Assembly (NCBI RefSeq): GCF_913778135.1 | Contig: NZ_CAJYVU010000046.1 | Location: 3,928 to 67,927 of the forward strand | DNA from: an uncultured Sphingomonas sp. | GTDB lineage: Bacteria; Pseudomonadota; Alphaproteobacteria; Sphingomonadales; Sphingomonadaceae | DNA length: 64,000 nucleotides | Reading direction: 5' to 3' | In this document: positions 14,027 through 34,884 of the stretch, piece by piece | Position numbering within the stretch: the first letter of the stretch is position 1 | How the letters are laid out: each line of letters starts with the position of its first letter | Made by a program: the position numbers and the translations under genes | The notes under the pieces: model-generated | Databases searched by the model: none | What the model was told of the DNA's origin: nothing | What the model saw: the letters and a program-made list of their open reading frames with translations, nothing else

Positions 14027-14102
14027 GCCCAGGTAGCTCAGTTGGTAGAGCATGCGACTGAAAATCGCAGTGTCGGCGGTTCGATCCCGTCCCTGGGCAC
14101 CA
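14027..14102 (+). tRNA. tRNA-Phe(GAA)
   Basis: 76 nt, GCCCAGG/CCTGGGC acceptor stem, anticodon arm TGCGA-CTGAAAA-TCGCA (GAA at 14060-14062), GGTTCGATCC T loop, encoded CCA. Confidence 0.98.
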
Positions 14103-14104
14103 TC

Positions 14105-14109
14105 AGATG
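14105..14109 (+). repeat. Left copy of 5-bp target site duplication AGATG
   Basis: Identical to 44646-44650; both copies directly abut the inverted repeats. Confidence 0.88.
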
Positions 14110-14148
14110 TAATCGGACCCGCCAAGACCTAAGCTCTGACCCGCTAAC
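14110..14148 (+). repeat. Left transposon end: terminal IR plus second transposase-site-like motif
   Basis: TAATCGGACCCGCCAAGAC (14110-14128); ACCCGCTAAC at 14139-14148. Confidence 0.85.
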
Positions 14149-14648
14149 GTGTTCGCAGGCACCATTTAGAGGCCTGTAGCTGTGACGTTGAGAAGTCAGC
14201 GGCGCATATTCGACCTAAATTGTTCGAAGAATTCCAGTCATCGCCCTCTTCTTGGCTGAAGCTCAAGAAGCGTCATGCGGATCACCATTTTCGGCCGTTC
14301 AGAGCCAGTTTACCCCTCTCCAACTCCGGCCCTTCGTTCACCTCGGCCGAGCGGCGGATTTGGCGCTTTCGTCGAACCGGCTGAACGGCATCGGCGGTAG
14401 ATCTCCGCCCTTCTGAAACTAATGCCCCTATACGGCGTCAGCCGGTCTCCGACGCATCGCGCCGCTTGACGGATCAAACCGTGATTGTGTCGAAGGGGCA
14501 TGAACGATAGCGCAGCGCGAGCGTGACCGGCAGCGAACTAGCCTACCTTGATACTGGGTTAGGTCGAGCGGGTAGCGGCAGGCGGACTGGGAATCGACTC
14601 TCGCGCGCGGCAGCCGCTATCAAAACGGCTAGTCCTCGAAAGGCAATC

Positions 14649-17177
14649 ATGCCCAAACTTCCTCGCGCCTTCCTATCTCACCACTCGGCTGACAAGAAGA
14701 TTGTCGGCGAAGTCGCAAGGTCGCTCGGCCGCGCCGCAGTGATTTATGACGCCTTCGAATTTGACGCTGGTGATGACTTCAGGGAGGCTATTCTCGCTAG
14801 CCTCTCTCGTTCGGACATCTTCGTCCTTTTCGCTAGTCGTGGCGCACTGACACGCGACTGGGTCAGATTTGAGATTGCCACCGCGAAGGAGGCGATGACG
14901 CGCAAGGCCCTCAGCAGGGTAGTTACCTTTATAATAGATCCAGCCCTCGACCTTGACGATCTACCCAATTGGATGAAGCAGACGCTCATCGTCCGTCAAG
15001 ACAACGCCGGCCTGATCGCGATCGAGATCAGGCGCATGATTGGCCAACGTCTCGCGGAAAGAATACCGTCCTACTTTGTCGGACGACGTGCCGAGATTGA
15101 GGAGGCCCTTGACGTCATTTCGAGTTTTACCGATCCCGACCAGCGTCCGCCTCTGCTAGTATACGGTCTTAAGGGAATTGGTCGGCGGACCCTCGTCCAA
15201 GCGGTAGCAAGGGACAATCTCTCCTATTCGACCACGTTGCCGGTCCCGCTCGGAGCCGGCGATCTGATGCCGGAGACGTTCGTTCGGCTCTCGGACGCCC
15301 TGTCGCCAGGCGGAGTCGCCGACTACGCTGTCCTCTTGGCCGAGCAGCAGGCCAAGGCGCCCGACACTCTCAGGGCTGACGTGCTTGAACTCATGAGCGT
15401 CGCATGCGACGCAGGAACGCTGCCGGTCATCGTCGACAACGGCGCCTTGGCTCAGCAGAACGGCGTGCTCCGACCGGAGTTCGAGGCGCTCTACCATGCG
15501 ATCGCGGCAGATCGCATGATTGACGCGGTCTTTATTGCGAGCCGACGCCTGTACGGGGCCGGGGGAGCGAGCCTGCCCTCGCTGCGCGTTCCTGAACTTG
15601 ACCAGGCATCTACCCAAAACTTACTGCGGGTCGCGGGCCGAGACATGGGGCTGGTCTTCGCAAGATCCGAACTCAGCTCACTGGCGACGTACTCTAGGGG
15701 CTACCCGCCCGCCGTACGCTTCGCGCTGGACGAAGCGCGGACCAGAGGCGTGCCGCAGGTCGTGGCAAATCAACGCGCGTTGGTAAACTTCAGCGCCGAG
15801 CTCTTTCTTCGACAGCTGAAAGAGAACAGCGCAATTACGCCCGCAATGGTCACAATGCTGAGGCTGCTATCGGCCTTCAGCCCTTTGCCACTCGGCGTCT
15901 TAGCGGATTACGGCGGAATTGCTGATGCCGAAGCCAACGCAGCAATGGACCAGCTCATTGATCTCGCCTTCGTGTTACCGGATGGGCTGAACTTCCGCAT
16001 TACCGAGCCGCTTCGCGATGCCGCCTACCGTGCCTTCGACGGCTTAAGGGTGGATTCCTCACGCCTCGCCGACCTGCTGGACGCATATCTGCGAGAAGAG
16101 GCCGGCGACGACGCACGGTTGAGCCTCGGGCAGACGATCTTCCGAGCCAGCCTGCTCGCGGGAACGCCGGCGCTGTCCCCGTTCGCGGTCGGTTTCGCGG
16201 CAGATCTGATCCAAGTGGCCACCCGCAGCTACCACGACCAAGACTACGATCTTGCGATACGCTACGGAGCGGCGGCGTTGGAGGCCCGGCCCGACAACGT
16301 CGACGTGCGCCGCTACGTTGCGCAGGCTTTCATCAGACGAGATAAGTTCGACGATGCGGACGCTCATATCGACGAGCTGATCAGGCAAGGTGAGCTGAAG
16401 GAGGCTTTCTATATTCGAGGCTTCGCGGCCCGCCGCAGAAGGGAGTACGGTGCAGCGGTCGAAGCGTATGAGAAGAGCCTCGCGTATGGCCGCGGGGGCG
16501 TTGCCGTTCATCGCGAACTCGCCAGCAGCTATTTCGAGCTAGGAGATCTCGCCAAAGCCGAGCATCATATCACACAAGCCGAGGAGAAGTCGCCGCACAA
16601 CCGCTACGTCGTTGACCTGCGCTGTACTATAGCGCTGCGCCACGGAGACTTGGAAACCGCAGCCAGAACTTTGGATGTCCTCGAACGAGTAGATCCGAGC
16701 GGCTTCGCCGACCACCGCCGTTCAACTTTCGAGCAGGCGCGTGGCAATCCAGGGGCGGCGCTGCGATACGCCGAAACGGCAAACCGCACCATACCGCATC
16801 CGCCATTCGAAGTCATGGCTAACCTGGCAAACTGTGAAATTGAGGCGGACCGTGCCGAGGCCGCACTCTCGACGCTGACCTTATTGTCTAAGCGCTTCGG
16901 AGGAGCCAACCATGACGCCCAAGTCGGCTTGCGATGCAAATACGAAATTCGGTTCGGCAGCCTCGACGCTGCAGAGGGCCTATGGACGACGCTCCGCGAT
17001 CGTGGCACGCCGGTTCACACAGGTCTCCGCCTATCGATCCTGAACCGCAAGGGAGCAGAAGTCGGACTCGACGCGGCCGACGAGAAAGAGCGGCAAGGCT
17101 TGGCGGAGCGACAGTCGGCCCTGGAGGCGGAGCGCAATCAGCGCATGCTGGGCTCGATCTTCTCGCGCTCAGAATAG
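14649..17177 (+). CDS. TIR-STAND/NB-ARC-like-TPR protein (NLR-like)
   Basis: N-terminal TIR (AFLSHHSADK...DWVRFEI), FVGRRAEI followed by LLVYGLKGIGRRT P-loop-like motif, GYPPAV, C-terminal TPR-like helices. Confidence 0.8.
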   Translation: MPKLPRAFLSHHSADKKIVGEVARSLGRAAVIYDAFEFDAGDDFREAILASLSRSDIFVLFASRGALTRDWVRFEIATAKEAMTRKALSRVVTFIIDPALDLDDLPNWMKQTLIVRQDNAGLIAIEIRRMIGQRLAERIPSYFVGRRAEIEEALDVISSFTDPDQRPPLLVYGLKGIGRRTLVQAVARDNLSYSTTLPVPLGAGDLMPETFVRLSDALSPGGVADYAVLLAEQQAKAPDTLRADVLELMSVACDAGTLPVIVDNGALAQQNGVLRPEFEALYHAIAADRMIDAVFIASRRLYGAGGASLPSLRVPELDQASTQNLLRVAGRDMGLVFARSELSSLATYSRGYPPAVRFALDEARTRGVPQVVANQRALVNFSAELFLRQLKENSAITPAMVTMLRLLSAFSPLPLGVLADYGGIADAEANAAMDQLIDLAFVLPDGLNFRITEPLRDAAYRAFDGLRVDSSRLADLLDAYLREEAGDDARLSLGQTIFRASLLAGTPALSPFAVGFAADLIQVATRSYHDQDYDLAIRYGAAALEARPDNVDVRRYVAQAFIRRDKFDDADAHIDELIRQGELKEAFYIRGFAARRRREYGAAVEAYEKSLAYGRGGVAVHRELASSYFELGDLAKAEHHITQAEEKSPHNRYVVDLRCTIALRHGDLETAARTLDVLERVDPSGFADHRRSTFEQARGNPGAALRYAETANRTIPHPPFEVMANLANCEIEADRAEAALSTLTLLSKRFGGANHDAQVGLRCKYEIRFGSLDAAEGLWTTLRDRGTPVHTGLRLSILNRKGAEVGLDAADEKERQGLAERQSALEAERNQRMLGSIFSRSE

Positions 17178-17357
17178 TTATACCGGCGGGTCAGCCGGCC
17201 TAATGCCGTGGCTCCGCCGCCATTACCGGTTGCGAAAAAGCGGCATGGTCGAGGGCGGGCAGCCCTCGCTTCGACGACCCACACGACGCGCCCTGACCCA
17301 CGAAGTGACATTTTCGCGTCGGGCCTAGCCGCGCACGGTACACAGCGGGCAGACCGC

Positions 17358-17792
17358 TTAGTCGGCCGCTTCATCGATCCACTTCTTCAACATCGCGTGA
17401 TCGACGTAGCTGCGCACGGGGGCCTGAGAATTGACGATGGCTTGAGGCGTCGCACCGACCGGATCAGTCATGCCCGTTTTGTCCTTGAGATGGTTGATGC
17501 GAAGCGCGACAATCCCGTTCCCGCGCGCGATCGACTGCTCGATCTCATAATCGATGTACTTGCGACCCGCTGATTTTGCGCCGATGCACACGACTGTCAC
17601 CGACGTGTTCGCCAAGCCGTTGTCGATGAGCGCTTTAATGGCCTTGTCACCCTTGGTCTTGGCGTCTTCCCACAGTGAGGCGTCGTGGAAGCCCGCCGCC
17701 GCGACGCCGACAATCTCGCCGATGTTGCGGATCTGGTTCACGCGCCAGATGTCGCGATCGTAGTGGAAGCTAAAGAAGACCCGGCGCGCCAC
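17358..17792 (-). CDS. ThsB-like TIR protein (DUF1863/MTH538 type)
   Basis: (GTG)ARRVFFSFHYDRDIWRVNQIRN...TSVTVVCIG...YIDYEIEQS..RGNGIVAL. Confidence 0.88.
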   Translation of the reverse strand: MARRVFFSFHYDRDIWRVNQIRNIGEIVGVAAAGFHDASLWEDAKTKGDKAIKALIDNGLANTSVTVVCIGAKSAGRKYIDYEIEQSIARGNGIVALRINHLKDKTGMTDPVGATPQAIVNSQAPVRSYVDHAMLKKWIDEAAD

Positions 17793-17879
17793 GACTTTAC
17801 TCCAAAGCCAAATCGGACGCATAGCGCGCGTCGATCCCCACGTGCAACGTCCGCAACCGCGAGATCATCGACGTTGCAA

Positions 17880-18365
17880 TCAGGGATGAGCGATCCGCGC
17901 CAGCCTGCATCGAACCCTTTCGACCAGATCTTCCACCGACGACGCCCGCTCGATGCCGTAGCGCTCAGCCGTGATGTCGATGTTACCCTTGCGAAAGTAG
18001 TCGGGCGCGCAGAACACGATCAGCCTTCCTCCGCGGGCGTGTAATCCTAATTCGAGAAGGCTGATAGGACTCTTGGAGCCTGACGCGAAATGCAGCACGA
18101 CAATGTCGGCCACCTCCAGGGCCTCAAGTTCCCACTTGACCTGCTCTCTGAAGTGCGGCTCGTCGGCGACAGGCAGCCAGTCAGCGCTCCAGTCCGCCCG
18201 GCGCGGGTTCACGATCGCCGCGCGCTCGCCGGACAGCAATTCTATGGCCTGCGCCTGCCAATCTTCGGAGTCGCCCATGTCAATGGTGCCGCCTAAGTAA
18301 ACCATCGGCCATCGGTTCGCGTTGGCGAGAGGCTGTGGAGCGGTGATCACGCGGGCGACGGTCAA
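17880..18365 (-). CDS. Nucleoside 2-deoxyribosyltransferase-like protein
   Basis: VYLGGTI, NPRR, QVKWELEALEVAD, SPISLLELG, FRKGNIDI; TTGA overlap with patatin stop. Confidence 0.8.
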   Translation of the reverse strand: MTVARVITAPQPLANANRWPMVYLGGTIDMGDSEDWQAQAIELLSGERAAIVNPRRADWSADWLPVADEPHFREQVKWELEALEVADIVVLHFASGSKSPISLLELGLHARGGRLIVFCAPDYFRKGNIDITAERYGIERASSVEDLVERVRCRLARIAHP

Positions 18366-21100
18366 GCTGGTTCTCCGATCGCTTTCGGTGCAACGATGCC
18401 ATCCCCGGTCACCGACGTGGCCGCGTCAAGAGGCTCAAGCAAGCTCTTTCCCATTGCCGCGAACCAATGTCCGATGTCTACATCCTGGTCTGTCGGGAAC
18501 GCCCCAACGATGCTCTGGAGGAAGAGCTTCTCCCCAACGTGCTGCCCGAGGCTCCGATAGGCCTCAAAGCGGGCCTCGCTAAAGTTCTGATCCGCCGTCG
18601 GATGATGGGGAAAGGCGGGCTCATCGAGCCTAAACCGGCGCAGGAACTCCCCTTCGTTACCGGTGAGGGACAGCTTGAGGTAGAGCATGTAGCCGACCGC
18701 TCCGTCGCGATAGCGGATGCGGCAGAACTGGAAGTGTGAGCGGCTGAGTCCGTCTCCATTACGCCTCAGTTCATCCAGATTGATCTCGATACGCACGCCC
18801 AAGTCGATCGAGGCGAGCCGCTGCAGGTTAGCAATGGCATGAAAGGTCATGTCTTGGTCCTGCTCGCCATCGATCACAACCACGAACTTGCAGCGTCGCC
18901 TCAGCAGCTCGTAGACTCCGAGATTTTCAATATGGCCGCCGTCGGAGAGGTTAAGGAAAGCGGCACGCTCGTCCATCCGACCGGTGAGTTCGCGAAGCAG
19001 GTAACTGAGGCCTGGTAAGCCTTGCGGGCTCGATTTTTCGACCGCGGGATTTCTTAGCCAGTATCCCAGCCTGACGTTCAGCAGCGAAAGCCAAAAGCTG
19101 AACTGCCCCCGATTGTGTAGACCCATGCGGGGCGAGATCGCTGCACCGGAGATCGCCATCGCTGTGGCGATCGTCAGGTCAGGCTCCAGGCACTCCCATT
19201 CCGTCGTCCGGTGATAGCCGCTGATCGGACTGCCACAGTGGTGTGGTGTGAACGAGAAAAAGTCGGTGAGGCGCCCTCGCATCGCTGGTGCGTCGGAACT
19301 CGGCACGTTGAGCGCCGCGTTGAAGATGGGATAGGGGCCGAGACGACCTTCAGCGAGCGAACTGAGCTTGCGGTCGTCGTCGGTGACCACCGCTCCCGGC
19401 TTGGCGTCAGCTACGAGAAACGCTTCCGCCAGCTTGCGCCGATAGTGCCGGTGCAAGCCAGTGACGTTGAGGTTTAAGAAAAAGTGATAGTAGCCTGCGA
19501 TACCAAGCGCGGCGACGGCGAACCAGAGGCCGTATTGCTCATGATCGATAAAAAATGCGGTCGACGCCAGCGTCACGATTGTCACGAACAGCGGGGCGGA
19601 GGAGCGCGCCAACCAGCGCCCGACGATCGGCGCCCTGGTCAGGGTCCGTTCCAGAACGATGCCGACGACCAGCAGGCCGAGCGGAGCGATGCAAACGTAG
19701 AGCAGTTGCAAGGGGTCGTCACCCATCGCGAGAGCCATCCACGCGGCGGATTCCCGCATGCCGATCGCGGCCAGCGCCACGGCCAGAACCACCGCGCACA
19801 TAGCCGTTGCTTGGTCGGCAAACTTCACCCCCTCTCGCCCCTGCCGCCACGCCAACGGCGCTCCGATCATAGCCAAGGAGAGAGCTCCAAGCGAAACGAC
19901 GGCAATCCAGTTGGTAAAGAAGGAAGGTATGAGGATAACGAATAGAGCCGAGAAAAGGCACAGGACCGCAGACAGCGCGAGGAGGTTGTTCAGCAGGCCG
20001 CTCGTCTGCGCGAAGACCGTGGACCATATCTTAGACAAGGGTCCTGACGCTAGATAGCGGCTGTTCTGACGGATGTGACCCGTGGCTGCGGCATCGCGGT
20101 GCGTTTCCCCGAACGGCCTGTCGCCACGCTCTAGTCCGATCGGCCGTGCCGCCTCGATCGCGCCGTCACCGGCCCCGACGTCACCAGCGGGCCCGCTCGT
20201 TCGATCGACATCTGTCGTCTCACCGGCAGCCAGGTAGTTCGTCAGAAATGCCCCGAGATAGCCGCCGCCGCTGACCGTCGAGAGGTAGTCGAACTGCTTG
20301 AGCAGGCCGCGTTTAGCGAACACGGTCAGCACGCCGAGGGCGAAAGTGGCCGACCGAATGCCGCCGCCAGAAAGCGCCAGCCCGGTCGCCCGCTCAGCCG
20401 TTAGCTCAATGCCGTAGCGCAGCCGCCGTCGATTGACCGCCTCCCGCTCAACCGACGCGATTTCGTCAAAGGAGATGCCCTTTACGCCATCGAGATCGTT
20501 CGGATCGCCCTTGTCTAGACCCCAACACAGCGCCACTCCCATCTCCAGATCTACGGCGGCCGCCTCCGCCTGCGGCAGCCGCCCAGGATCCTTCTCGCCC
20601 GCCAGCCTAAGGAGCATGAGATCCAGAGTTCGCAGGGTCTCCTGCAAGGCGGCTAGCTGCAGCCGGAAGTCGTCCGTGTCGTCGAGCGCGGCTAGGCGCC
20701 CCGCGCGATTGCGACGGTGCCAGCGCGAGGTGAATGGGCGAACGTGGTGGTTAAGCACGAACCACGTGACCGTCTCGAAGATTCGCCCCGTCGCGTTCTC
20801 CCGACAGATCACACGCGTCCGTTCGAACAATGCGTGCACGCTCTCAAGCGCAGACACCTCGTCGCCGCTCGAATAGCCGATCTCCTGAGTCGCGACACGC
20901 GACGTCAACTCCAGATGCAGCAGCGAAGCGGCCCTGACATCGGTCTCGCTGGGAGCCCACGCGCGGTGGCCGTGCGCCTCCAGGAACGCGTTCGTTAGGA
21001 CGGGCGTCGCGCCGACGTCCAACGCCCTCAGCTGGTCCTCCCAAGTCGTTTCGCTCACCGACCCCGTCCCATTGCTCGCTACGTCATCCCTGGAAGGCAT
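18362..21100 (-). CDS. Membrane patatin/cPLA2-like phospholipase with unknown N-terminal helical domain
   Basis: GLALSGGGIRSA, YLSTVSGGGY (Ser), LSDGGHIENLG (Asp); central hydrophobic segments; start set at ATG 21100. Confidence 0.85.
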   Translation of the reverse strand: MPSRDDVASNGTGSVSETTWEDQLRALDVGATPVLTNAFLEAHGHRAWAPSETDVRAASLLHLELTSRVATQEIGYSSGDEVSALESVHALFERTRVICRENATGRIFETVTWFVLNHHVRPFTSRWHRRNRAGRLAALDDTDDFRLQLAALQETLRTLDLMLLRLAGEKDPGRLPQAEAAAVDLEMGVALCWGLDKGDPNDLDGVKGISFDEIASVEREAVNRRRLRYGIELTAERATGLALSGGGIRSATFALGVLTVFAKRGLLKQFDYLSTVSGGGYLGAFLTNYLAAGETTDVDRTSGPAGDVGAGDGAIEAARPIGLERGDRPFGETHRDAAATGHIRQNSRYLASGPLSKIWSTVFAQTSGLLNNLLALSAVLCLFSALFVILIPSFFTNWIAVVSLGALSLAMIGAPLAWRQGREGVKFADQATAMCAVVLAVALAAIGMRESAAWMALAMGDDPLQLLYVCIAPLGLLVVGIVLERTLTRAPIVGRWLARSSAPLFVTIVTLASTAFFIDHEQYGLWFAVAALGIAGYYHFFLNLNVTGLHRHYRRKLAEAFLVADAKPGAVVTDDDRKLSSLAEGRLGPYPIFNAALNVPSSDAPAMRGRLTDFFSFTPHHCGSPISGYHRTTEWECLEPDLTIATAMAISGAAISPRMGLHNRGQFSFWLSLLNVRLGYWLRNPAVEKSSPQGLPGLSYLLRELTGRMDERAAFLNLSDGGHIENLGVYELLRRRCKFVVVIDGEQDQDMTFHAIANLQRLASIDLGVRIEINLDELRRNGDGLSRSHFQFCRIRYRDGAVGYMLYLKLSLTGNEGEFLRRFRLDEPAFPHHPTADQNFSEARFEAYRSLGQHVGEKLFLQSIVGAFPTDQDVDIGHWFAAMGKSLLEPLDAATSVTGDGIVAPKAIGEPA

Positions 21101-21196
21101 CGGCCCACCAGGCGCCTGCACGTTAGACACCGCGGCGCTCGCGTCAAAGAACGACCTGTCGCGGAGAAGGGTTGAGTTTGGTCGCGCAAGGTGGGA

Positions 21197-21211
21197 GAAC
21201 GTTGATGGAAC
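21197..21211. promoter_or_regulatory. Alphaproteobacterial LexA (SOS) box
   Basis: GAAC-GTTGATG-GAAC; reverse strand reads TTTGTTC-N7-GTTCT; lies in the divergent intergenic region. Confidence 0.75.
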
Positions 21212-21269
21212 AAATTCCCGTGTCTGAACGCCGGTGCAGCTCGGGTGGAAAAGCGAGGATGACTTTCCG

Positions 21270-21764
21270 ATGGCAAAGCGTCGCCACGTCTTTATCAGCC
21301 ACCACCATGCCGACGACGCCCACGTCAGCGGCCTGACCGACATGCTCAAGCGCAACGGTCATGAGATCCGCAACAGCTCGATCCGCGCCAAGCCGGCCAA
21401 CCAGCGTCGCCTGGATGAGGGCCGCGTGAGCGACAATGCCATCAAACGACTGCTGCGGATGAAGATGAATTGGGCGTCCACGGTCGTAGTGCTGATCGGC
21501 AAGCAGACTCACGCGCGACCGTGGGTCGATTGGGAGATCAGGAAGGCGCACGAGCTGGGGAAGCGGATCGTCGGTGTCTACGAGCGCGGCGGGCGCGAGA
21601 ACGACATTCCGGATGCGTTCAAGAAGTACGGTGACGCCCTCGTCGGCTGGAACTCCGACAATGTGATCGGTGCGATAGACGGCACGTGCTCCCCCTTCGA
21701 ACGACCAGATGGCGGATCGCGCGCCACCTCTGGTGACGGCGCGCGGAGCAGCTGCGCCGCCTAA
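21270..21764 (+). CDS. ThsB-like TIR protein (DUF1863 type)
   Basis: RHVFISHHHADD, STVVVLIG, RPWVDWEIRKA, IVGV. Confidence 0.88.
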   Translation: MAKRRHVFISHHHADDAHVSGLTDMLKRNGHEIRNSSIRAKPANQRRLDEGRVSDNAIKRLLRMKMNWASTVVVLIGKQTHARPWVDWEIRKAHELGKRIVGVYERGGRENDIPDAFKKYGDALVGWNSDNVIGAIDGTCSPFERPDGGSRATSGDGARSSCAA

Positions 21765-22414
21765 TGCCGCACGTCCACGTCTACGCTGTCAGCTACGACC
21801 TAGGCTTCGCGCCGAACCCGTTCGGCGGCGTGTGCAGTCTGGCCTGCTGCAAGCCGGAGATCAGGAGGACCGCGCAACTCGACGACTGGGTCGTCGGATT
21901 GACCAGCACCAAGCTCCCACCAGCGCTGCGGCTCGTGTTCGCAATGAGGGTCTCTAGGATCAGCGACTTCGACGAATACTGGAGTTCGGCGGAGTTCGCC
22001 GGTCGAAAGGCGGCCCGCAACGGTTCGCAGAAGGCGCAGGTGGGCGACAACATTTACCATCGCGACAGACCCGAAACCGACTGGATCCAGGAAGATTCAG
22101 TGCACAGCCTTCCCGGCGGCCTGCAATGCGATCTTAATCGAGATCACGACACGCGCGTGAACCGGATCCTGCTGTCCGACCACTTCCTCTACCTCGGTGA
22201 TCAAGCGCGCGCCGTCCCGAATGAGATACTCGTCGAGCTAAAGTATTGGAAGAATCCGCGTGATCGCCGCAAATTCACGATGGAAGAGGCGGCGGACCTA
22301 ATTGGGTGGATCGAAGGGCTGAAGGCCGCCGCGGCAGCATCCGTCGTCGGCGATCCCATCGACTTCGACAAAACCGGCAAGACGTTCTCCTACGTCGGGC
22401 AGAAGATGATTTGA
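21764..22414 (+). CDS. Nucleotide modification associated domain 2 (Nmad2)-like protein
   Basis: YDLGFAPNPFGGVCSLACCKP.IR, LVFAMRV, GDNIYH, LLSDHFLY; TAATG overlap with TIR stop. Confidence 0.75.
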   Translation: MPHVHVYAVSYDLGFAPNPFGGVCSLACCKPEIRRTAQLDDWVVGLTSTKLPPALRLVFAMRVSRISDFDEYWSSAEFAGRKAARNGSQKAQVGDNIYHRDRPETDWIQEDSVHSLPGGLQCDLNRDHDTRVNRILLSDHFLYLGDQARAVPNEILVELKYWKNPRDRRKFTMEEAADLIGWIEGLKAAAAASVVGDPIDFDKTGKTFSYVGQKMI

Positions 22415-22504
22415 CGGCGATGGTTCACCCCGCAGCGGCCCGGCCGTTCGGTCGATTCCGGATGTCACGCGGCGATTCAATAGCATCAAACATTGTGGGC
22501 TGAC

Positions 22505-24103
22505 GTGACCTCATACCGCAACATCAGCGTGGCGACGGTGAATATCGTTGGGGAGCTGCTGAGCACGGGATCAACGATCTCGGTCCGCGGCTTGCAAACC
22601 CGCGAGGTCCTCGCCCGCCATACGCGACTGGAGCGTCCGCTGGAGCGCTACCTCTTCGTGCCGGAACGCAACGACGACGTCTTCGCGCAGGTCGCAGAAA
22701 CCATGTGGGTGCTCGCCGGCCGGGATGACGTCGCCTGGCTGGAGCGATACCTCCCAAGGGCGCGCGAGTTCTCGGATAATGGCGAGACCTGGCGCGCAGC
22801 ATACGGGCCGCGCCTGCGTAACTGGAACGGACGCGACCAGATTGCCGAGACGGTGCGGCTGCTGACCGAAGACCCGACCAGCCGCCGCGCGGTGATGTCG
22901 CTCTTCGATCCCGACCGCGACTTCATCGAGTCGAAGGACGTTCCGTGCACCAATTGGCTGGGATGGATCATCCGCGATAAGCGGCTCGAAATGAGCGTCA
23001 CGCTGCGCAGCAACGACGTGATATGGGGCTTCTCCGGCGTCAACTCGTTCGAGTGGAGCATCCTGCAGGAGATGCTCGCGTTCTGGCTCGGCGTGGAGGT
23101 CGGCCCCGCGAACTACTTCGCCATGTCGCTGCACCTGTACGACCGGCACGTCGATCGCGCGGGCAGGATTGTGCAGGCGGCGCGACGGCCGTCGCCGTAT
23201 GACTTCAGAATCAAACGGCATCCGTTCGCAACCCCTTGGGTGGATTTTGACGCCAAGCTCGCGCGCTGGTTTGCTCTGGAGCAGGCCGTCTCCACGAATC
23301 CTGGACAGCCGATCGGCAGCTTCGGCTCCGTGGGAGACCCGCTGCTCGATGCCGCACTCACGCTCGTCCACCTGAGGTGGGCCTCGGAGGTCTGGGACGA
23401 CCGGCGACTGGTCCGGGAACTCGGCCAATTACCGGCCGCCGATCACGTCGTGGCCGCCTACCGTCACCTCGGCCGGCGCCGGCCCGATGTCCTTGAGTGC
23501 ATCCCGCAAGAGGAGGTAGCGGCATTCTTCTCCGCGGCCGGAACGGCGGCAGAAATTTCCGACGAGGACGTGAGGGGCGCCATTAAGCGTCTGCACGCGG
23601 AGAAGAACAGAGCCTATGCCGGGGCATGGAAGCGGCGGGGCGAGCTGGTCAGCATTCAACCCAACATCGCCCGCAAGGTCGATCGGCTGGAGACGTTGGT
23701 CGCCACCAGAACGCTCATGGCGGGCGAGACGGCGCTCGACACCGCGATAGACCTCCTTATCTACGCGGAGAAATACCGGCTTTTCTTGGCCGAGGGGATG
23801 ACGCCGGGCACATTGATCCCAACGGACGCTCTGGAGCCGTTAAGCGACCACGACGCCAACCTTGATCTGCTCATCGACCGCTTGGGTCTGACGCCGAGCG
23901 GGCGCGAGGTTGAAATCATCGTACGGGAAATCGTCGAGGCATTCGATCATAGCTGGCGGAGAGCGGAGAGCGGCGCCTTGCCCGAGGACCGTTTCGAGAC
24001 CGCTACCCTCGTGTCCACACTTGCCGGCGAACTTGTGGCACTGCTGGCTGGGCGCGACAGAGAGGCGGTCGCCCGGTTCCTTCGACACGAAGCTCGGAAA
24101 TGA
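22505..24103 (+). CDS. Thymidylate-synthase-superfamily enzyme (dUMP hydroxymethylase-like) fused to DUF1599/Nmad1-like domain
   Basis: DPTSRRAV, DVPCTN (catalytic Cys), LRSNDVIWGFSGVN, SLHLY; C-terminal EKNRAYAGAW...NIARKVDRL...DTAIDLLIYA; start 22493 or 22505. Confidence 0.8.
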   Translation: MTSYRNISVATVNIVGELLSTGSTISVRGLQTREVLARHTRLERPLERYLFVPERNDDVFAQVAETMWVLAGRDDVAWLERYLPRAREFSDNGETWRAAYGPRLRNWNGRDQIAETVRLLTEDPTSRRAVMSLFDPDRDFIESKDVPCTNWLGWIIRDKRLEMSVTLRSNDVIWGFSGVNSFEWSILQEMLAFWLGVEVGPANYFAMSLHLYDRHVDRAGRIVQAARRPSPYDFRIKRHPFATPWVDFDAKLARWFALEQAVSTNPGQPIGSFGSVGDPLLDAALTLVHLRWASEVWDDRRLVRELGQLPAADHVVAAYRHLGRRRPDVLECIPQEEVAAFFSAAGTAAEISDEDVRGAIKRLHAEKNRAYAGAWKRRGELVSIQPNIARKVDRLETLVATRTLMAGETALDTAIDLLIYAEKYRLFLAEGMTPGTLIPTDALEPLSDHDANLDLLIDRLGLTPSGREVEIIVREIVEAFDHSWRRAESGALPEDRFETATLVSTLAGELVALLAGRDREAVARFLRHEARK

Positions 24104-25050
24104 CGCCCAACATCACGACCGACCTCCGGATCCGCCTCGTGCAGACCCTCGCTAAGCGCAATCCGGGCGCCCGCGTTGCGATAGTCGGCTGGTCGACGGC
24201 GGCCATCGAACTCGCTGCCGATCCGATCTTCGCGGAGGGGGCCGCGACGCTCATCGGGCGATATGCAGCGCAAACGGGCGGCTCCATCCTGCCCCTCTCT
24301 GAACTTGCGTCCGCGATCCCAGACGTCGTCGTCGTCGCGGAGGACGACGGCAAAGAGCCCCTCCTCAAGGCGGTAGCGAGGCTGGTTCCCGCGACCACAA
24401 CCATCGTTATCGCCGGCTTCGGTCACTTCGCCTTTCGTGACGAGCTGTTCGACCGCGTCCGGCGCGACGCTCTCATCCCCTCTTTCGCAAACGGGTATCC
24501 CAATTGCCTTGTGCACATTTACCAGTGTCTGAGGAACGCCCGCGCGCGAGGCCTGACCGGCGTTGTGGCGGAGTTCGGCATGTTCAAGGGCGGCACCACC
24601 ATGCTCATGTCCCGCTTCATCGAGGAACTCGGCGCCGACTGGAAGGTGATTGGCTTCGATACGTTCGATGGCTTTCCGTCGAAGCGCAGCCCACTGGACA
24701 TGTACGCTCATCCTGACTGCGTATTTCTCGACGTGGGCACCCTGCGCGCCATGTTCGCAGGCCGCGACGTCGAGATCGTCGAGGGAGACGTAGTGGAGAC
24801 ATGCGCGCGTCTCAATGACGAGCGGCTCGTGCTCTCTTTTGTGGACACGGACAATTACACGTCGGCCAATGCGATCCTGGCAGTCATAGCGGATCGCACT
24901 CAGGTGGGTGGCGCCATCGTGTTTGATCATTGGACAGGCGTCGATCGGTACCTCGACACCATTGGCGAGCGGATAGCGGCGATGACTCTGGCCGCGGATC
25001 GACGCTACTTCAACCTGCACGGCACCGGTGTATTTCTGAGGCAGGAATGA
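24100..25050 (+). CDS. TylF/MycF-family O-methyltransferase with N-terminal Rossmann-like domain
   Basis: VAEFGMFKGG, GFDTFDGFP, VEGDVVET, FVDTDNY, GGAIVFDHW. Confidence 0.82.
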   Translation: MTPNITTDLRIRLVQTLAKRNPGARVAIVGWSTAAIELAADPIFAEGAATLIGRYAAQTGGSILPLSELASAIPDVVVVAEDDGKEPLLKAVARLVPATTTIVIAGFGHFAFRDELFDRVRRDALIPSFANGYPNCLVHIYQCLRNARARGLTGVVAEFGMFKGGTTMLMSRFIEELGADWKVIGFDTFDGFPSKRSPLDMYAHPDCVFLDVGTLRAMFAGRDVEIVEGDVVETCARLNDERLVLSFVDTDNYTSANAILAVIADRTQVGGAIVFDHWTGVDRYLDTIGERIAAMTLAADRRYFNLHGTGVFLRQE

Positions 25051-26159
25051 GCGCAACCGGCAGCCATTTCGTGCGGCGCGTACCGCCGATGCCACGCGCC
25101 GGCGTCTACGACCTGTACTGGCAGTTCGCATCAAAGCGCCAAGCGGCGTTCGAGGCCCGGCTTGCGGGCAGCTGCTGGCCTTGGTCGCCCGACCCGATTC
25201 TGCAGACCTTCAAGTTCTGCAATGTTTATCGTGCAGCCGACCGCGTGTCACAATACCTCATTCGGCACGTGGCCTACGACAACCATCCGGAAACGACGCC
25301 TAGAGACCGCGTTTTCCAGATCACGGCCTTCCGCACGTTCAGCAAGATCGCGACGTGGGAGGGGGTAGTCGATGAGCTGGGCGGTCCACCGATGCTAGAG
25401 CACCTCCGCTCCGGCGCATTTGAGACGGCGCTTGACCAGGTCAGGGCGCGCAACGGCGGTCTCTATACAGGTGCCTTCATCCTATGCGCCAACAAGGCCT
25501 TCGGCTTCCAGGAAAAGCACCGAAATCACATTGCGTTGTTCAAGCACATGTTCCTAGAGAGCATGTGCGCTGAACGGGTCCTACAGTTGCCTTCCCTACG
25601 CGGCGTTGTGGAGCTGCTGCAGAGCTTCCCGCTGCTCGGGCCCTTTATGGCGTACCAGACCGCCATCGACATCAACTACTCTGAACTGACGGCATTTAGC
25701 GAGAACGACCACACCCAGGCCGGCCCTGGCGCGCTCCGCGGCTTAAAGAAGGCCTTTATCCACCTGGGTGACCATTCGCCGTCCGACGCAATTCTGTGGA
25801 TGGTCGACAACCAGGAAGCTGAATTCGCACGCTTGGACCTACCGTTCCAAGGGTTGTTCGGTCGGCCTCTGCACGCGATCGACTGCCAAGGTCTGTTCTG
25901 CGAACTCGACAAGTACTGCCGCGAGGCCGTGCCGGACCTGACCAGCGCGAGGAGCAGGATTAAGGCGCGGTATCGCGGGTCAAACGATGCTATCGATCTG
26001 TTCTTTCCGCCCAAGTGGAAATTGTTCACCACGGCCGGCATACCTGCGGCGCACATCAAAGTGCTCGGCAATCGATCGGTTATGCGGCCGAGGATAGCCA
26101 GAAGCCATAGCCGCGACGGCCGGGGAATGCGCGACCTCTTCGATACCGCGCGAGACTGA
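25047..26159 (+). CDS. 5-hmdU DNA kinase-like helical domain protein (aGPT-Pplase1 family)
   Basis: PWSPDPILQTFKFCNVYRAADRVSQYL, FRTFSKIATW, AYQTAID, GPGALRGL, FCELDKY. Confidence 0.8.
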   Translation: MSATGSHFVRRVPPMPRAGVYDLYWQFASKRQAAFEARLAGSCWPWSPDPILQTFKFCNVYRAADRVSQYLIRHVAYDNHPETTPRDRVFQITAFRTFSKIATWEGVVDELGGPPMLEHLRSGAFETALDQVRARNGGLYTGAFILCANKAFGFQEKHRNHIALFKHMFLESMCAERVLQLPSLRGVVELLQSFPLLGPFMAYQTAIDINYSELTAFSENDHTQAGPGALRGLKKAFIHLGDHSPSDAILWMVDNQEAEFARLDLPFQGLFGRPLHAIDCQGLFCELDKYCREAVPDLTSARSRIKARYRGSNDAIDLFFPPKWKLFTTAGIPAAHIKVLGNRSVMRPRIARSHSRDGRGMRDLFDTARD

Positions 26160-26408
26160 GCCGGATGCGGGTGCTCGCCAAATGAACGAATGAGTGTTTG
26201 CAGCGGGCGCCACGTTAAAGCGGACACGCCGATTTCCACCAATCCAAGCAGTTAACGTTTCGTCAAATAACTACCAAAATGATCGCATCGTTGCACATTT
26301 GATTGGTTAGAAGGACAACACCGTCATTCTGATGAGCTATTCATTTTCACACCAGCCCGTTTGCTTAATGGCAGACCCATTATCTGCCTCAGATACTTTC
26401 TTAAAATG

Positions 26409-26663
26409 CTAGGTGGACGGCGTTAAACCACATCGATTTAAAGCTGCAAGCTCCTTCTTGGTCATACGTCTGCCAACTATCCTACTGCTGGTAAACTGCC
26501 CAACCCTGCGCTCTGCCATGATTTCTGCCACAACCTCTCTCGCCGTTTTTCTGTTCACGACATGGATCGTCTTTTTGCGGCCGGGATCTGCCAAGATCCG
26601 CTTGAGCTTCTCACTCAGACGCACCTCCACCTGGACCGGGTAGATTTTCGCTGCGGGAAGCAC
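26409..26663 (-). CDS. Small basic hypothetical protein
   Basis: Last ORF of a co-oriented run; no recognised motif; start uncertain. Confidence 0.4.
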   Translation of the reverse strand: MLPAAKIYPVQVEVRLSEKLKRILADPGRKKTIHVVNRKTAREVVAEIMAERRVGQFTSSRIVGRRMTKKELAALNRCGLTPST

Positions 26664-26692
26664 GCGAGCAGATGCTTAATAGATGCCTGCTG

Positions 26693-27367
26693 TTATTCAC
26701 CAGCGGCATCCCGACGAGCCGCTTCAAACTCAAGAAGGGAGACTTCGATTAGAGAAATCTGTTCAAGTGGGTAGTAACGTTCAGCACCCTCAACACAGGA
26801 GATTTCAACGAAGTTGATCTTGTCATCGTCTTCGAGTTCGAGGAGCGCAATGAGGTTAGTTCGATTGGCTTCGTAACTGATCGAGGTACCGTTCCGAAAA
26901 TGGATCGTCGTGTGACGTAGATACTTAACGAGCTCCTCCTGTCGGTCTGTGAATCCTGCAGTATCGATTATTGACGCAACTTCGGCGCGTGCACTCAGCG
27001 TGTTAGATACTTCAAACTCCGGATCACCTTCTGCCCACAATGACATGAGCCTGTAAGTTTCTATGGGTAGGCCAGCATAGTCGTTAAAGGGTCCATCGCA
27101 TGGGTGGTCGCCTTTAGGCCAATAATCTCCATCATCGAGCAGCGAGATCATCGGCATCTGAAGCAGGTCGACAATAAGCAGCCGGTTATTCAGAGTTTCG
27201 ATGATGGAGATGCCACCAATCGAGGAGCGCAGCCGCCTGCGTACCTGCAGCTCCGTTTCTTCTGAGATCGGAAACCAAGCGGAACGTTGCCGCCTAGGAC
27301 CGCGTAAGCCGAGATGGCCAGAGAAGCCCGCCCCGAGACCTTCACGAGTTGTCCTTCCTACTTTCAT
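26693..27367 (-). CDS. Hypothetical protein
   Basis: 224 aa ORF with ATGA overlap to the upstream ORF. Confidence 0.6.
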   Translation of the reverse strand: MKVGRTTREGLGAGFSGHLGLRGPRRQRSAWFPISEETELQVRRRLRSSIGGISIIETLNNRLLIVDLLQMPMISLLDDGDYWPKGDHPCDGPFNDYAGLPIETYRLMSLWAEGDPEFEVSNTLSARAEVASIIDTAGFTDRQEELVKYLRHTTIHFRNGTSISYEANRTNLIALLELEDDDKINFVEISCVEGAERYYPLEQISLIEVSLLEFEAARRDAAGE

Positions 27368-27930
27368 AGGACCTCGCAGATGAAGAGCGCACCAGGCAAA
27401 GCACGCTTCAGAGTCTCGGCATAGCGAACTGCATCAAACCGGTATGAAAACCCATCGGACGTCGCAGCAGATACGGCAGTCGCATCGCCAGCTGCGATCA
27501 GCTTCTTCTCCGTAGAAAACACCATAAAGGCAGCCTCACCGCGCTCCGCGATGCTCATTTCCCGCTCGAACCATCGTTTGCGCGCTGGCTCCGTCATGGC
27601 TGCGAACGATTGCTTGAACGCAGCCATCTTCTCCCCAGCCCCTTCTACACGCCAGCTGGTCAAGTCGCATGACAAGTGCCCGAGCGCCGCGTAGACAAAC
27701 CTTCCCAAAGCAGGAGTCACAATTCCTACGGGAATCCTCGCCTGAACAGCGTCTGCGAGAGCCATAAGACCGATACCCGCAGCCACATCAGTTTGAAGCG
27801 AGCTATTTGGTACGGCGCAACGATACGCGTGATGAAGGTTTTCGCCACGCACTCTCGACAAATCAACCAAAGTCCTTAATTGCCCGTGCGGGATATTATA
27901 TTGGCTAATTTTAGCCTTTAAAGATTCCAT
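27364..27930 (-). CDS. Hypothetical protein
   Basis: GGAG RBS before ATG 27930; coupled to the next ORF. Confidence 0.6.
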   Translation of the reverse strand: MESLKAKISQYNIPHGQLRTLVDLSRVRGENLHHAYRCAVPNSSLQTDVAAGIGLMALADAVQARIPVGIVTPALGRFVYAALGHLSCDLTSWRVEGAGEKMAAFKQSFAAMTEPARKRWFEREMSIAERGEAAFMVFSTEKKLIAAGDATAVSAATSDGFSYRFDAVRYAETLKRALPGALFICEVL

Positions 27931-27970
27931 CCATACACTCCTTCCAAAACACCTTTGCACCTGGTGCGGT

Positions 27971-28174
27971 TTACTCCGCCAACACGGCGATCAGCTGACA
28001 CCTCGGCGCACTCACAAGCGCCTCCGAAGCGATAAGAGACCCGCCAATCTCCAGATCCTTCACGCGCAGACAGCGCGAGCGAGCCATTTCCAACGAAAGC
28101 TCATCCAAGCTTCGCGCGGCAGCCTCCGCCACAATCGGCTGAGAAGACCCAATCAACGATATTGATACCCTCAA
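27971..28174 (-). CDS. Small hypothetical protein
   Basis: 67 aa, GGAG 7 nt upstream of the GTG start; first gene divergent from tnsA. Confidence 0.5.
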   Translation of the reverse strand: MRVSISLIGSSQPIVAEAAARSLDELSLEMARSRCLRVKDLEIGGSLIASEALVSAPRCQLIAVLAE

Positions 28175-28330
28175 GCTTCACTCCTTAACTTCCTAGCACA
28201 ATCACTCTAGCAGCAGAGCGTCTTTGAAATAGATAACGCATCCCGGCCTTGTCAACGCGTTACTTGTGTTTAGTTTGCGCAGGTGACCCTGTTAAGGTTA
28301 ACGGAGCAAGTGTTATTATGGATTGTCTAC

Positions 28331-28388
28331 GTGTTAGTCTGACTTAACACTACCTCCGCTTTTTTGTACTTGAGTGTTAGTGTCTGAC
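28331..28388. promoter_or_regulatory. Palindrome and direct repeat upstream of tnsA
   Basis: GTGTTA-GTCTGACT-TAACAC (28331-28350); GTGTTAG(TG)TCTGAC repeated at 28331 and 28374. Confidence 0.45.
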
Positions 28389-28404
28389 GCACGAGAATCG
28401 ACGT

Positions 28405-29244
28405 ATGCAGACAGCTCCCACCATCGACCTACGCCGAGCAGGCGGTGCGTTCACAAAATCCGATTCGCCGGTCTTTGATGCGACTTCCAAACAATCGCTC
28501 CAGTCGGCGACTGCAGCAGCTCGTGATTTTAGTGGGCTGGCTGTTGAGCGGATTGTGATCGTCCGCGCACCCGACCGGGACCAGTTGCGGGGCCAGATTA
28601 CCGGTACGAAGACGGTTCGTACGCTGAGCTATCCCTCACGGAAAACGCAGCGCGCGCGCTTTGCTGAAGGAGCCGCCGAGTTCGAGCGGATCGAGGCTGA
28701 AGAGGTTGAAGTCGCGGTTGTCGACGGCGTTGCGCAGCCGATGCGCATCGAAGCGCTAGTTCATACCCCCGCGGGTCCGAATTGGCTTTCCCATATTCCC
28801 GATTTCGCGACGCTTTACGCGAATGGAGAGCGTGCACTTGTCGACGCCAAGCGCGTGTGGAGTGATTTTCGGAAGCCGCTCGGTTACAAACAGACATTCC
28901 TTGGGCAGCTCGCCGCCGACATGATGGGGTACCGCTACGAGCGAATTATCCTCGGGAGCGCTGGTAGCGACGTGCGCCGTCGCAACATCAATGAGGTGCA
29001 GGCAGCACGCTTCGTGCACGTTCCCGATCACCTCGCGGCACGGGCCGCACTAATCCTCAAAGCCGGCGGCATTTCACTTGGCCACTTGAGTGACCTTCTT
29101 CACCCCGCAAACGGCCGCGCGATGGTTTTCGCGCTCATGGTTCGCCGCTTGGTAGAGATCGATCTGGATCGCCCCTTAGGGGTCAACAGTGAATGTCGTG
29201 CAGTGCCCGCCCTGCCCTCCGCAATGCCAAGCATCCGTCACTAG
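28405..29244 (+). CDS. tnsA: TnsA-like PD-(D/E)XK endonuclease
   Basis: SRK...AQP.RI...HIPDF...ALVDAK; first gene of the tns operon. Confidence 0.75.
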   Translation: MQTAPTIDLRRAGGAFTKSDSPVFDATSKQSLQSATAAARDFSGLAVERIVIVRAPDRDQLRGQITGTKTVRTLSYPSRKTQRARFAEGAAEFERIEAEEVEVAVVDGVAQPMRIEALVHTPAGPNWLSHIPDFATLYANGERALVDAKRVWSDFRKPLGYKQTFLGQLAADMMGYRYERIILGSAGSDVRRRNINEVQAARFVHVPDHLAARAALILKAGGISLGHLSDLLHPANGRAMVFALMVRRLVEIDLDRPLGVNSECRAVPALPSAMPSIRH

Positions 29245-29322
29245 GACGCGGTTCGCCACCACAAAGGACGAACAGCAAGTCCGGTTTCTCGCTTTGATAT
29301 TACAGACATCGGGACATCTTGA

Positions 29323-31542: not shown

Positions 31543-32525
31543 TGTCGAACAGGCTCAGAACCGTGGTTTTCAGCCCCTCCGAGCTGCTTCCACAGACGGG
31601 CAGCCCTCAACCGGATGTAAAACCCCGAAAGTTGGTCGCTCTCGCTTCGCGCGATCAGATAATACGGTCGATCTATATTCAAAATCCGAACCACACGCCC
31701 GTCTTTAAATCCCTTGACCTGGTTCTTAGCCTCGGTGTCAAAGGTGTTTTTCAGACTGGTGTTCGGAACGCCGCACCAAGTTTCGCAGGGAAGAGCGCGT
31801 CTGCGGATGAGTTCGCGCGGATCGTAGAACGGCGCGAGACTTACCCCAAGGAGACCAGCCCAGTTGTCCGGGTGGAGCTCGAGCAGGCATGCACGTCAAG
31901 GCGCTTCTGGTCGACAATCCTCGGAAAGTATGGCGACGGCTTCACGGCTTCGAAGGACGAGGAAGGATTGCGTCGCAGCACCTACGATGCCTTTGAGCGT
32001 CACGGGACGAAGCTGCTGATCATCGACGAGGTGCAACACGCCGGATACCGATCCAAGGGTTCCTCCGCACCGACCGACGTTATCAAGCGCTTCATCTCCG
32101 ATGCACAGGTTGGCGTCGGGCTGTTCGGCAACGAGCAAACGCTCGAGCTTCTCCAATCCAATAATCAACTGAGCCACCGGTTGCAGGAACCATGCGACAT
32201 CAAGCCGCTCGACATCACTGAGCCATCCGCCTTGCCGAGATTTGGAAAGTTCCTTGCCGACTACGACGATGCCCTGATTGCAAACAAGCTCTTCACGACC
32301 AGCCTGCCTCTTCGCGATGCACGGGTTGCGGGTTGCCTGATGACTATCGCTAGTGGCTTTCTCGGCAGAGTTGTCACGCTGCTGCAGATTGCAGGGCGGC
32401 GAGCTTTCCTGCGCGGCGCGACTTCGATCGAGTTGCACGACCTTTCGCATGCCTCTACGTCGTGGGCGGTCCAGCAACGGCTAACGCCGCACGACCCTTT
32501 TCGGTTCGGCATTGCAGGTGGCTAA
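31539..32525 (+). CDS. tnsC: TnsC/TniB-like AAA+ ATPase
   Basis: Walker A APSFAGKS, Walker B LLIIDEVQH, QLSHR; ATGA overlap with tnsB. Confidence 0.88.
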   Translation: MMSNRLRTVVFSPSELLPQTGSPQPDVKPRKLVALASRDQIIRSIYIQNPNHTPVFKSLDLVLSLGVKGVFQTGVRNAAPSFAGKSASADEFARIVERRETYPKETSPVVRVELEQACTSRRFWSTILGKYGDGFTASKDEEGLRRSTYDAFERHGTKLLIIDEVQHAGYRSKGSSAPTDVIKRFISDAQVGVGLFGNEQTLELLQSNNQLSHRLQEPCDIKPLDITEPSALPRFGKFLADYDDALIANKLFTTSLPLRDARVAGCLMTIASGFLGRVVTLLQIAGRRAFLRGATSIELHDLSHASTSWAVQQRLTPHDPFRFGIAGG

Positions 32526-34479: not shown

Positions 34480-34604
34480 GACCCGATCGGAAACAGACCA
34501 TGTAATAGACCGCTATGATTGCTGTTTCGCCTCCCTCATCTCCGCCGTCACCCTACCACCGACCTCCTGGCTGCAGGTGCTTAACCTGACCGATCTTGCC
34601 CTTT

Positions 34605-34875: not shown

Positions 34876-34884
34876 TCAGTCGGT

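Follow-up and report, generated by a model that had tools for sequence, protein, structure and literature searches.

A Tn7-like transposon inserted just past tRNA-Phe in a sphingomonad, and a TnsD-type TniQ as its probable target selector

We analysed a stretch of 64,000 nt from an uncultured Sphingomonas sp. (contig NZ_CAJYVU010000046.1, positions 3,928 to 67,927 of the forward strand; hereafter the window), in which an island of 30,536 bp (14110–44645) follows the gene for tRNA-Phe. We found that this island is one Tn7-like cut-and-paste transposon: it has defined ends and a target site duplication (TSD), it encodes four core transposition proteins, and its relatives repeat the association with tRNA-Phe in the same orientation. 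The best explanation, which we hold to be very probable, is an element of the type TnsABC plus a TnsD-type TniQ that homes to tRNA-Phe, with TniQ as the reader of the site.

The element and its junctions

The attachment (att) site and the two ends of the element comprise the following features:

14027–14102, + strand: tRNA-Phe(GAA) gene (ARAGORN; Rfam RF00005, 69.9 bits), intact, with encoded CCA at 14100–14102; the attachment site
14105–14109: left copy of the TSD, AGATG, with TC (2 nt) between it and the CCA; read directly from the sequence
14110–14175, + strand: right (att-proximal) end, consisting of the 19-bp terminal repeat and packed subterminal repeats about 22 bp apart
44520–44645, − strand: left (att-distal) end, consisting of the terminal repeat at 44627–44645 and three spaced subterminal repeats
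44646–44650: right copy of the TSD, AGATG, followed by native DNA downstream of tRNA-Phe

The tRNA-Phe(GAA) gene is the only tRNA gene that ARAGORN reports in the window, and it is the single tRNA-Phe gene of the assembly, which is 99% complete. Past its CCA the + strand reads TC-AGATG-TAATCGGACCCGCCAAGAC, the last part covering 14110–14128. At the far junction the + strand reads GTCTTAGTGGGTCCGATTA (44627–44645) and then AGATG. The duplication is exact at both junctions and begins at the third base past the CCA, just as the original prediction, made from the sequence of the window, had stated; the element itself starts 7 nt past the CCA. When one end is aligned to the reverse complement of the other, 17 of the 19 positions of the terminal inverted repeat match.

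Inside the right end the subterminal repeats are GACCCGCCAA at 14116, GACCCGCTAA at 14138 and a weaker CACCATTTAG at 14160, and this three-site layout recurs in relatives. The left-end repeats lie in the opposite orientation at 44630–44639, 44562–44571 and 44531–44540, about 7, 75 and 106 bp from the terminus. Seven relatives preserve the left-end architecture including CCTATGGGT and the CACGAG blocks. The arrays are asymmetric, being packed at the right end and spaced at the left. The name right end is conventionally given to the end that lies upstream of the tns genes (PMC11406308); in the window this is the packed-repeat end, which faces tRNA-Phe. Furthermore, the G+C content changes exactly at both junctions, from about 0.70 outside to 0.52–0.65 inside. 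The element is single-copy in the source genome.

The closest same-genus genome (G427, flanks 90–96% identical) carries a 12-kb island of another kind at the orthologous tRNA-Phe (G427:C4:591200–604300), in which a tyrosine integrase gene (PF00589) directly follows the tRNA gene and the far end is marked by the tRNA 3' half in a 47-nt direct repeat. Since the DNA after this repeat is homologous to the window from 44651 onward, the right flank of the window is the native downstream DNA of tRNA-Phe, and what lies between the AGATG copies is all inserted DNA. Two unrelated kinds of mobile element use one tRNA-Phe address in these sister species.

Transposition genes and the TniQ/TnsD protein

The transposition genes are four co-directional open reading frames (ORFs), overlapping or closely spaced, at 28405–34479:

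28405–29244, + strand: tnsA, PD-(D/E)xK endonuclease subunit of 279 aa (NF033179 at E 1e-7, below the cut-off)
29323–31542, + strand: tnsB, DDE (rve) transposase of 739 aa (Pfam rve)
31539–32525, + strand: tnsC/tniB, AAA+ regulator of 328 aa (Pfam PF05621 TniB, E 8e-17, 61.8 bits against a cut-off of 22.4)
32512–34479, + strand: tniQ, TnsD-like and the proposed target selector, ORF of 655 aa (fold and family-profile match)

In the tnsA product the residues D133, D147 and K149 (PD...D/E-x-K) are invariant in an alignment with eight homologues (9 sequences). The AlphaFold model of TnsA has a moderate predicted local distance difference test score (pLDDT) of 66; its top four Foldseek matches in the PDB are Tn7 TnsA (1t0f, 1f1z, 9bw1) with a probability of 0.99–1.0, and the fold matches include the TnsAB chain of the TnsABCD transpososome. 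For TnsB the best PDB match in phmmer is Tn6677 TnsB (E 3e-29), followed by the TnsB proteins of PseCAST, ShCAST and Tn7. TnsC shows a weak PDB match to VchTnsC.

For the 655-aa protein we found 18 homologues among 5.8 billion clustered proteins, none of them with precomputed Pfam domains. The alignment of these 18 homologues shows an N-terminal PGESL motif, an invariant CxxC...CxxC zinc ribbon and then a helical region. A family profile matches the type I-F3 TniQ 7u5d in the PDB at E 3e-5. The AlphaFold model has a pLDDT of 82.7, and the first 20 Foldseek PDB matches are all TniQ or TnsD, covering about 400 residues; the C-terminal ~200 residues give short local fold matches to MerR/Xis-like helix-turn-helix (HTH) domains. 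By model and profile the protein is thus assigned to the TniQ/TnsD family with a predicted C-terminal extension of about 200 aa of small HTH-like domains. Fold and profile searches in this way bear out the earlier description as a ~650-aa TniQ with a long C-terminal extension, for which Pfam alone is insufficient.

The start codon of tniQ is uncertain (TTG at 32512 or later). The segment 32512–32673, upstream of the start called in the database and outside the structure model, encodes a CxCxxC (DNCHCAKCSGSSPDRSTPRVL) that is conserved in most homologues and may be an extra metal-binding motif.

Taken as a class, Tn7-like elements share a number of features, and those found here are an rve TnsB, a TnsA with PD-(D/E)xK, a TnsC/TniB encoded next to tnsB, a TniQ/TnsD selector, and a 5-bp TSD with asymmetric repeats. 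TGT...ACA termini, which are usual but not universal in the class, and the usual position of the tns operon directly inside the right end are absent.

Related elements lie beside tRNA-Phe

A scan of genome contigs with the single protein gave no relatives and an alignment-based scan was needed. Run on one genome per species, it yielded five close selector homologues (in G401 to G405, named below), and more were found on metagenome and Logan contigs. The tRNA-Phe genes of the five genomes were located by searching with the tRNA of the window. All five have a right end TAATC[GA][GC]ACC... after tRNA-Phe, with three packed repeats. In total, seven of the seven close relatives whose att-proximal end is within reach agree with the window: their right end lies 7–18 nt past the CCA of the tRNA-Phe gene, always in one orientation. 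Distances from the CCA to the terminus and duplications are as follows:

Window: 7 nt, TSD AGATG
Allosphingosinicella metagenome-assembled genome (MAG; G401): 8 nt, TSD CCCCT
Tsuneonella suprasediminis (G402): 8 nt, TSD CCTCC
Lichen Sphingomonas MAG (G403): 8 nt, TSD TCCCA
Sphingomonas sp. LC-1 (G405): 8 nt, only CTG common to the two junctions
Metagenome contig Ga0163111_10000282: 9 nt, right end only
Logan contig ERR9725033_10: 11 nt, TSD TTCTG
Sphingomonas sp. AX6 (G404): 18 nt, TSD GTGAT

Five relatives (G401, G402, G403, G404 and ERR9725033_10) thus have matching 5-bp duplications of their own. Because the same end sequence adjoins tRNA-Phe in seven other genomes or contigs, a chance association is excluded. 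It had been suggested to check whether close TniQ homologues sit beside tRNA-Phe at a fixed distance: the location held in all seven cases, the fixed distance did not, the spacing being mostly 8 nt within the range given above.

Where the tRNA gene and the tns genes are on one contig (G401, G402, G404, ERR9725033_10 and the window), the operon is co-directional with the tRNA gene and lies 18–62 kb downstream. Left ends are located downstream of tniQ in each case, with conserved architecture. On ERR9725033_10 a walk upstream leads from BREX cargo to YacG, to tRNA-Phe and the right end 11 nt past its CCA. In a further scan of metagenome contigs the query was the right-end sequence, with nothing of the flank, and one match was obtained, Ga0163111_10000282, in which tRNA-Phe lies 9 nt before the end. 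The right ends of this contig and of Tsuneonella are near-identical over more than 80 nt, and the host tRNA-Phe sequences and junction bases differ. Near-identical right ends beside different tRNA-Phe sequences and junctions suggest separate, recent insertions of the same element in two hosts, and for the same reason the family may still be mobile.

No close family member was found at an unrelated locus among the relatives examined, the finding that would have spoken against targeting; for Sphingomonas sp. UYEF23 the contig starts inside the island, so that the right end is out of reach. The left flank of UYEF23, TCCTGACAG, resembles the DNA downstream of the LC-1 tRNA-Phe, which is suggestive only. 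In G055, whose selector is 30% identical, a tRNA-Phe lies 18.7 kb upstream and the left end is off the contig.

When all ORFs of the window island were compared with seven related elements by tblastn, only tnsA, tnsB, tnsC and tniQ were in common and all cargo differed. Where scorable, TniQ, the most variable of the four tns proteins, is 37–55% identical to that of the window, and TnsC 62–81%. In an alignment of six genomic sites conservation extends only across the tRNA gene, and the bases between the CCA and the element vary. The flanks upstream of the tRNA-Phe sites are unrelated in some genera.

In AX6 (G404:C1 ~1760386–1760404) an extra 10 nt, GATAATGTGAT, stand before the element and resemble a short end-like fragment. 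They are perhaps the scar of an earlier insertion, or the AX6 selector may work with a different spacing.

Among more distant homologues, a TniQ cousin with 25% identity belongs to an element in G089 (G089:C1 ~78.9–96.9 kb) that has TGTTGGGAC termini and the TSD TCTGC and lies 16 nt past tRNA-Arg(ACG). In this element 925 bp separate tniQ from the left end downstream, and the right end lies 15.3 kb upstream of the gene. A divergent TniQ thus goes with a different tRNA in G089, the target changing together with the selector. Apart from G089, an automated search for inverted repeats with 5-bp duplications around 14 distant TniQ homologues (22–30% identity) returned GC-rich noise. Some distant homologues have tRNA genes within 20 kb (Arg-TCT, Leu, Thr, Gln, Gly, Pro, Met), which are candidate sites at most.

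Selection of the site

TniQ-guided recognition of tRNA-Phe is the best explanation because the tns genes are all that the elements have in common, the tRNA gene is all that the sites have in common, the cousin goes with tRNA-Arg, and TniQ/TnsD proteins have an established role in targeting (PMC10293859, PMC9881144, PMC11406308). The TnsD-like recognition of the tRNA-Phe sequence that had been proposed for the window gains support from the seven relatives at tRNA-Phe and from the presence of tniQ among the four common genes; that TniQ is the physical reader of the tRNA-Phe DNA is what we infer from this.

Modelled on Tn7 TnsABC+D and on the cyanobacterial tRNA-homing elements, the mechanism would run as follows. 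The C-terminal DNA-binding part of TniQ would bind the double-stranded DNA of the tRNA-Phe gene. TniQ would then recruit TnsC in one polarity, and TnsC would activate TnsA and TnsB on the asymmetric ends. Joining would take place a few bases past the CCA with the right end beside the tRNA, creating the 5-bp duplication and leaving the sole tRNA-Phe gene intact. In Tn7 the region covered by TnsD starts some two helical turns away from the joint (the TnsD–attTn7 complex is described in PMC2918618). Because the joint here lies only 2–4 nt plus the duplication past the CCA, the analogy suggests that TniQ reads the interior of the tRNA gene (D/anticodon/T-arm region) and not its 3' tip.

We can extend this tentatively, as a possibility that we rate well below the explanation itself, to a distinct sphingomonad Tn7-like lineage in which a very divergent TnsD would read the tRNA interior on the anticodon-arm side and place the element 2–4 bp plus the duplication past the CCA. 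The lineage would carry its cargo on the right-end side, and changes in a modular C-terminal HTH array would have let it switch target between tRNA-Phe and tRNA-Arg. Such a lineage would represent compact, protein-only, retargetable homing.

Several points weigh against TniQ-guided homing by a Tn7-like element. Pfam TniQ PF06527 matches the 655-aa protein at E 0.6 only, and the template modelling (TM) scores of its fold matches are modest (0.25–0.41), as expected of a multi-domain model. The termini are TAATCGG...CCGATTA (TGATCGG in one relative), not the usual 5'-TGT...ACA-3'. In LC-1 the two junctions, which lie on different contigs, have only CTG (3 bp, not 5) in common. Spacing is not quite constant across the family (7, 8, 8, 8, 8, 9, 11 and 18 nt), whereas characterised TnsD pathways keep it to within about 1 bp for any one element. 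Finally, both the binding by TniQ and the transposition of the element are deduced from sequence and structure.

Homing to tRNA-Phe could in principle be read by a component other than TniQ, such as TnsB or TnsC with an intrinsic preference, a host factor or the DNA structure at a highly transcribed tRNA gene, with TniQ as a mere adaptor. The varying distance between tRNA and element (7–18 nt) would fit such a reader. However, tniQ is one of only four genes found family-wide, its product carries, at its C-terminus, the additional HTH-like region that DNA-reading TnsD proteins typically have, its divergent cousin pairs with a different tRNA, and in all Tn7-like systems tested the site is selected by a TniQ-family protein (PMC10293859, PMC9881144). 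We regard this reading as improbable.

Marginally less probable still is a stack of two elements, in which an older tnsABCQ element would start at ~28.03 kb and a later tns-less insertion would occupy 14110–28030, making the cargo upstream of tnsA an artefact of stacking. Tn7-like elements are known to stack at one att site (PMC8649781), and a word resembling the right end, TAAGAGACCCGCCAAT, is present at 28027–28047, ~360 bp before tnsA, with a related GACCCAATCAA about 110 bp further on. However, neither a left-end sequence nor AGATG adjoins 28027, and such a 10-mer occurs at chance level in the window (11 found against 11 expected, with one mismatch). None of the relatives has an end-like motif upstream of tnsA; every one of them, including the tRNA-Arg cousin, has the bulk of its cargo on the right-end side, with the left end as near as ~270 bp past tniQ, and in the window it is the outer ends that bear the perfect matching duplication. 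The candidate internal right end at 28027–28047 was rejected, as it has no partner end or duplication, is a chance-level word and has no counterpart in relatives.

A classical tRNA-integrating island that has lost its tyrosine integrase would suit the address, tRNA-Phe being a common integrase site that is occupied by such an island in G427, but the junction sequences effectively refute it and we give it next to no probability: the last 25 nt of the intact tRNA gene occur once in the window with up to 3 mismatches allowed, so that its 3' end is not duplicated, as had been noted before; PF00589 (Phage_integrase) has eight matches genome-wide and none on the contig of the window; and the insertion, located downstream of the tRNA and not within it, has terminal inverted repeats, subterminal arrays, a 5-bp duplication and a full tnsABCQ set. 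Equally negligible is targeting by a cryptic guide RNA as in CRISPR-associated transposons (CASTs), for although guide RNAs direct type V-K and some type I CASTs to tRNA genes (PMC11406308), Pfam scans of the island ORFs found no cas gene, nor any tyrosine or serine recombinase or resolvase, in agreement with the original prediction, Rfam and tandem-repeat searches of the element detected no CRISPR-like array and no RNA family besides the tRNA, nothing beyond tnsABCQ is conserved among relatives, and TniQ is of the large TnsD type and not of the small CAST type.

Comparison with known systems

Homing to tRNA genes through TniQ/TnsD was already named in the original prediction as known from other Tn7-like groups, and the literature agrees. 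TnsD-dependent tRNA homing has been shown for PmcCAST/Tn7744 (I-B2) and for McCAST/Tn7575 and CyCAST/Tn7745 (I-D), with tRNA-Leu and tRNA-Val as targets, and has been inferred for many Cas-free cyanobacterial relatives (PMC9881144, PMC10293859). Tn7-like elements have repeatedly acquired tRNA genes as attachment sites (reviewed in PMC11406308 and PMC8649781). Our literature search on Tn7-like elements with tRNA-Phe or in sphingomonads found no paper on the sphingomonad tRNA-Phe group.

The sphingomonad element resembles the cyanobacterial tRNA-homing elements in its large TniQ, whose C-terminal part binds DNA (predicted here), and in its orientation-specific insertion, TnsABC-dependent in those elements and presumably here, downstream of an intact tRNA gene. 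It differs in its Sphingomonadaceae host and its tRNA-Phe target, in lacking a second TniQ and CRISPR-Cas, and in a selector that the Pfam TniQ model misses; surveys relying on this model would score such elements as selector-less. Cyanobacterial elements insert 29 ± 1 or 30–33 bp past the tRNA, compared to 7–18 nt in the sphingomonad family (8 nt in four of eight). Their TnsA and TnsB are fused, whereas the window has separate ORFs (28405–29244 and 29323–31542), and the sphingomonad element is outside the cyanobacterial fused-TnsAB clade.

Like Tn7, the element has separate TnsA, TnsB and TnsC proteins and a TnsD-like selector, a 5-bp duplication, and packed right-end and spaced left-end repeats. 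As in Tn7, it is the right end that is turned towards the recognised gene, transcription of the tns operon leads away from the attachment site, and the insertion uses a safe site just past an essential gene. Unlike Tn7, it is located at a tRNA gene and not at glmS, has no TnsE or second pathway, and ends in TAATC instead of TGT. Furthermore, the operon abuts the right end in Tn7, whereas 14 kb of cargo lie between them here (10–57 kb in relatives).

In sequence TnsB is closest to Tn6677 (type I-F3), and the best PDB matches of TnsC and TniQ are also of type I-F3. Unlike those systems, the sphingomonad element has no Cascade and no guide RNA, and its TniQ is about 250 residues longer and presumably DNA-reading. 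More generally, it differs from CRISPR-associated transposons in that no cas genes, CRISPR array or guide were found in the element. Islands with a tyrosine integrase at tRNA-Phe use the same address, but their recombination takes place within the tRNA gene, so that its 3' half is found again as a direct repeat. In contrast to Tn5053/Tn402 (TniABQR; no TnsA, a TniR resolvase, a res site), TnsA is present and no resolvase was found.

The element is well supported as a member of the Tn7-like class; this is not surprising and does not overturn current understanding. The principle is an established one; new are the sphingomonad lineage, the tRNA-Phe target, the very short spacing and the position of cargo between the right end and tnsA. 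tRNA-Phe and the Sphingomonadaceae thereby join the sites and hosts of protein-guided Tn7-like transposons, and the arrival of a 30-kb anti-phage island in the chromosome is accounted for without an integrase. The family is small and well delimited and offers natural replicates, with one address, several genera and different cargo (TIR/Thoeris-like, DS-4-like, BREX, Ssp-like). Its short spacing and the tRNA-Arg cousin make it a simple system for studying distance measurement and specificity change of TnsD-type proteins.

Cargo and layout

The tnsA gene begins 14.3 kb from the right end, with about 14 kb of cargo intervening. In relatives the right end is located 18–62 kb upstream of tniQ and 10–57 kb of cargo lie between the right end and tnsA. 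The bulk or all of their cargo is on the right-end side, with the left end as near as ~270 bp past tniQ (Tsuneonella), and the tRNA-Arg cousin is arranged likewise. Pfam scans of the two cargo blocks of the window gave the following assignments:

14523–28174: cargo block 1, between the right end and tnsA, with ORFs without assignment up to 28174
14523–17177: TIR-STAND-TPR protein
17358–17822, − strand: ThsB-type TIR protein
17880–18365, − strand: nucleoside deoxyribosyltransferase-like protein
18362–21355, − strand: patatin-like protein
21764–22414: Nmad2, in an operon with the next three genes
22493–24103: thymidylate-synthase-like protein
24100–25050: TylF-type methyltransferase
24930–26159: 5-hmdU DNA kinase-like protein
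34513–44408: cargo block 2, downstream of tniQ, with further ORFs without assignment
35440–36099: SRAP protein
36425–36943: LuxR-type HTH protein
41306–41704: BLUF protein
42382–43590, − strand: M48 peptidase-TPR protein

The region 14523–26159 is a dense anti-phage block made up of the TIR, deoxyribosyltransferase-like and patatin-like genes and the Nmad2–thymidylate-synthase-like–TylF–kinase-like operon. The right-end side of ERR9725033_10 carries a BREX-type cluster (BrxC/PglY, methylase, SNF2 helicase, PglZ). In UYEF23 this side holds a cysteine desulfurase, DUF4007, large ATPase and PAPS-reductase cluster beside a 1786-aa FtsK-domain protein; the cluster presumably resembles SspABCD phosphorothioation.

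Directly before tnsA, at 28300–28400, words of the type GTGTTA(G/T) are repeated, with an inverted TTAACAC in the tnsA leader; in relatives the DNA before tnsA does not conserve these words. As left-end sites they were rejected, there being no adjoining partner end or duplication and nothing comparable in relatives. They may serve as an operator or promoter.

In cargo block 2 an imperfect repeat with a 9-bp period (units of 9, 18 and 27 bp, ~10 copies) is located at 40407–40574 inside overlapping ORFs of both strands, and probably encodes a repetitive peptide.

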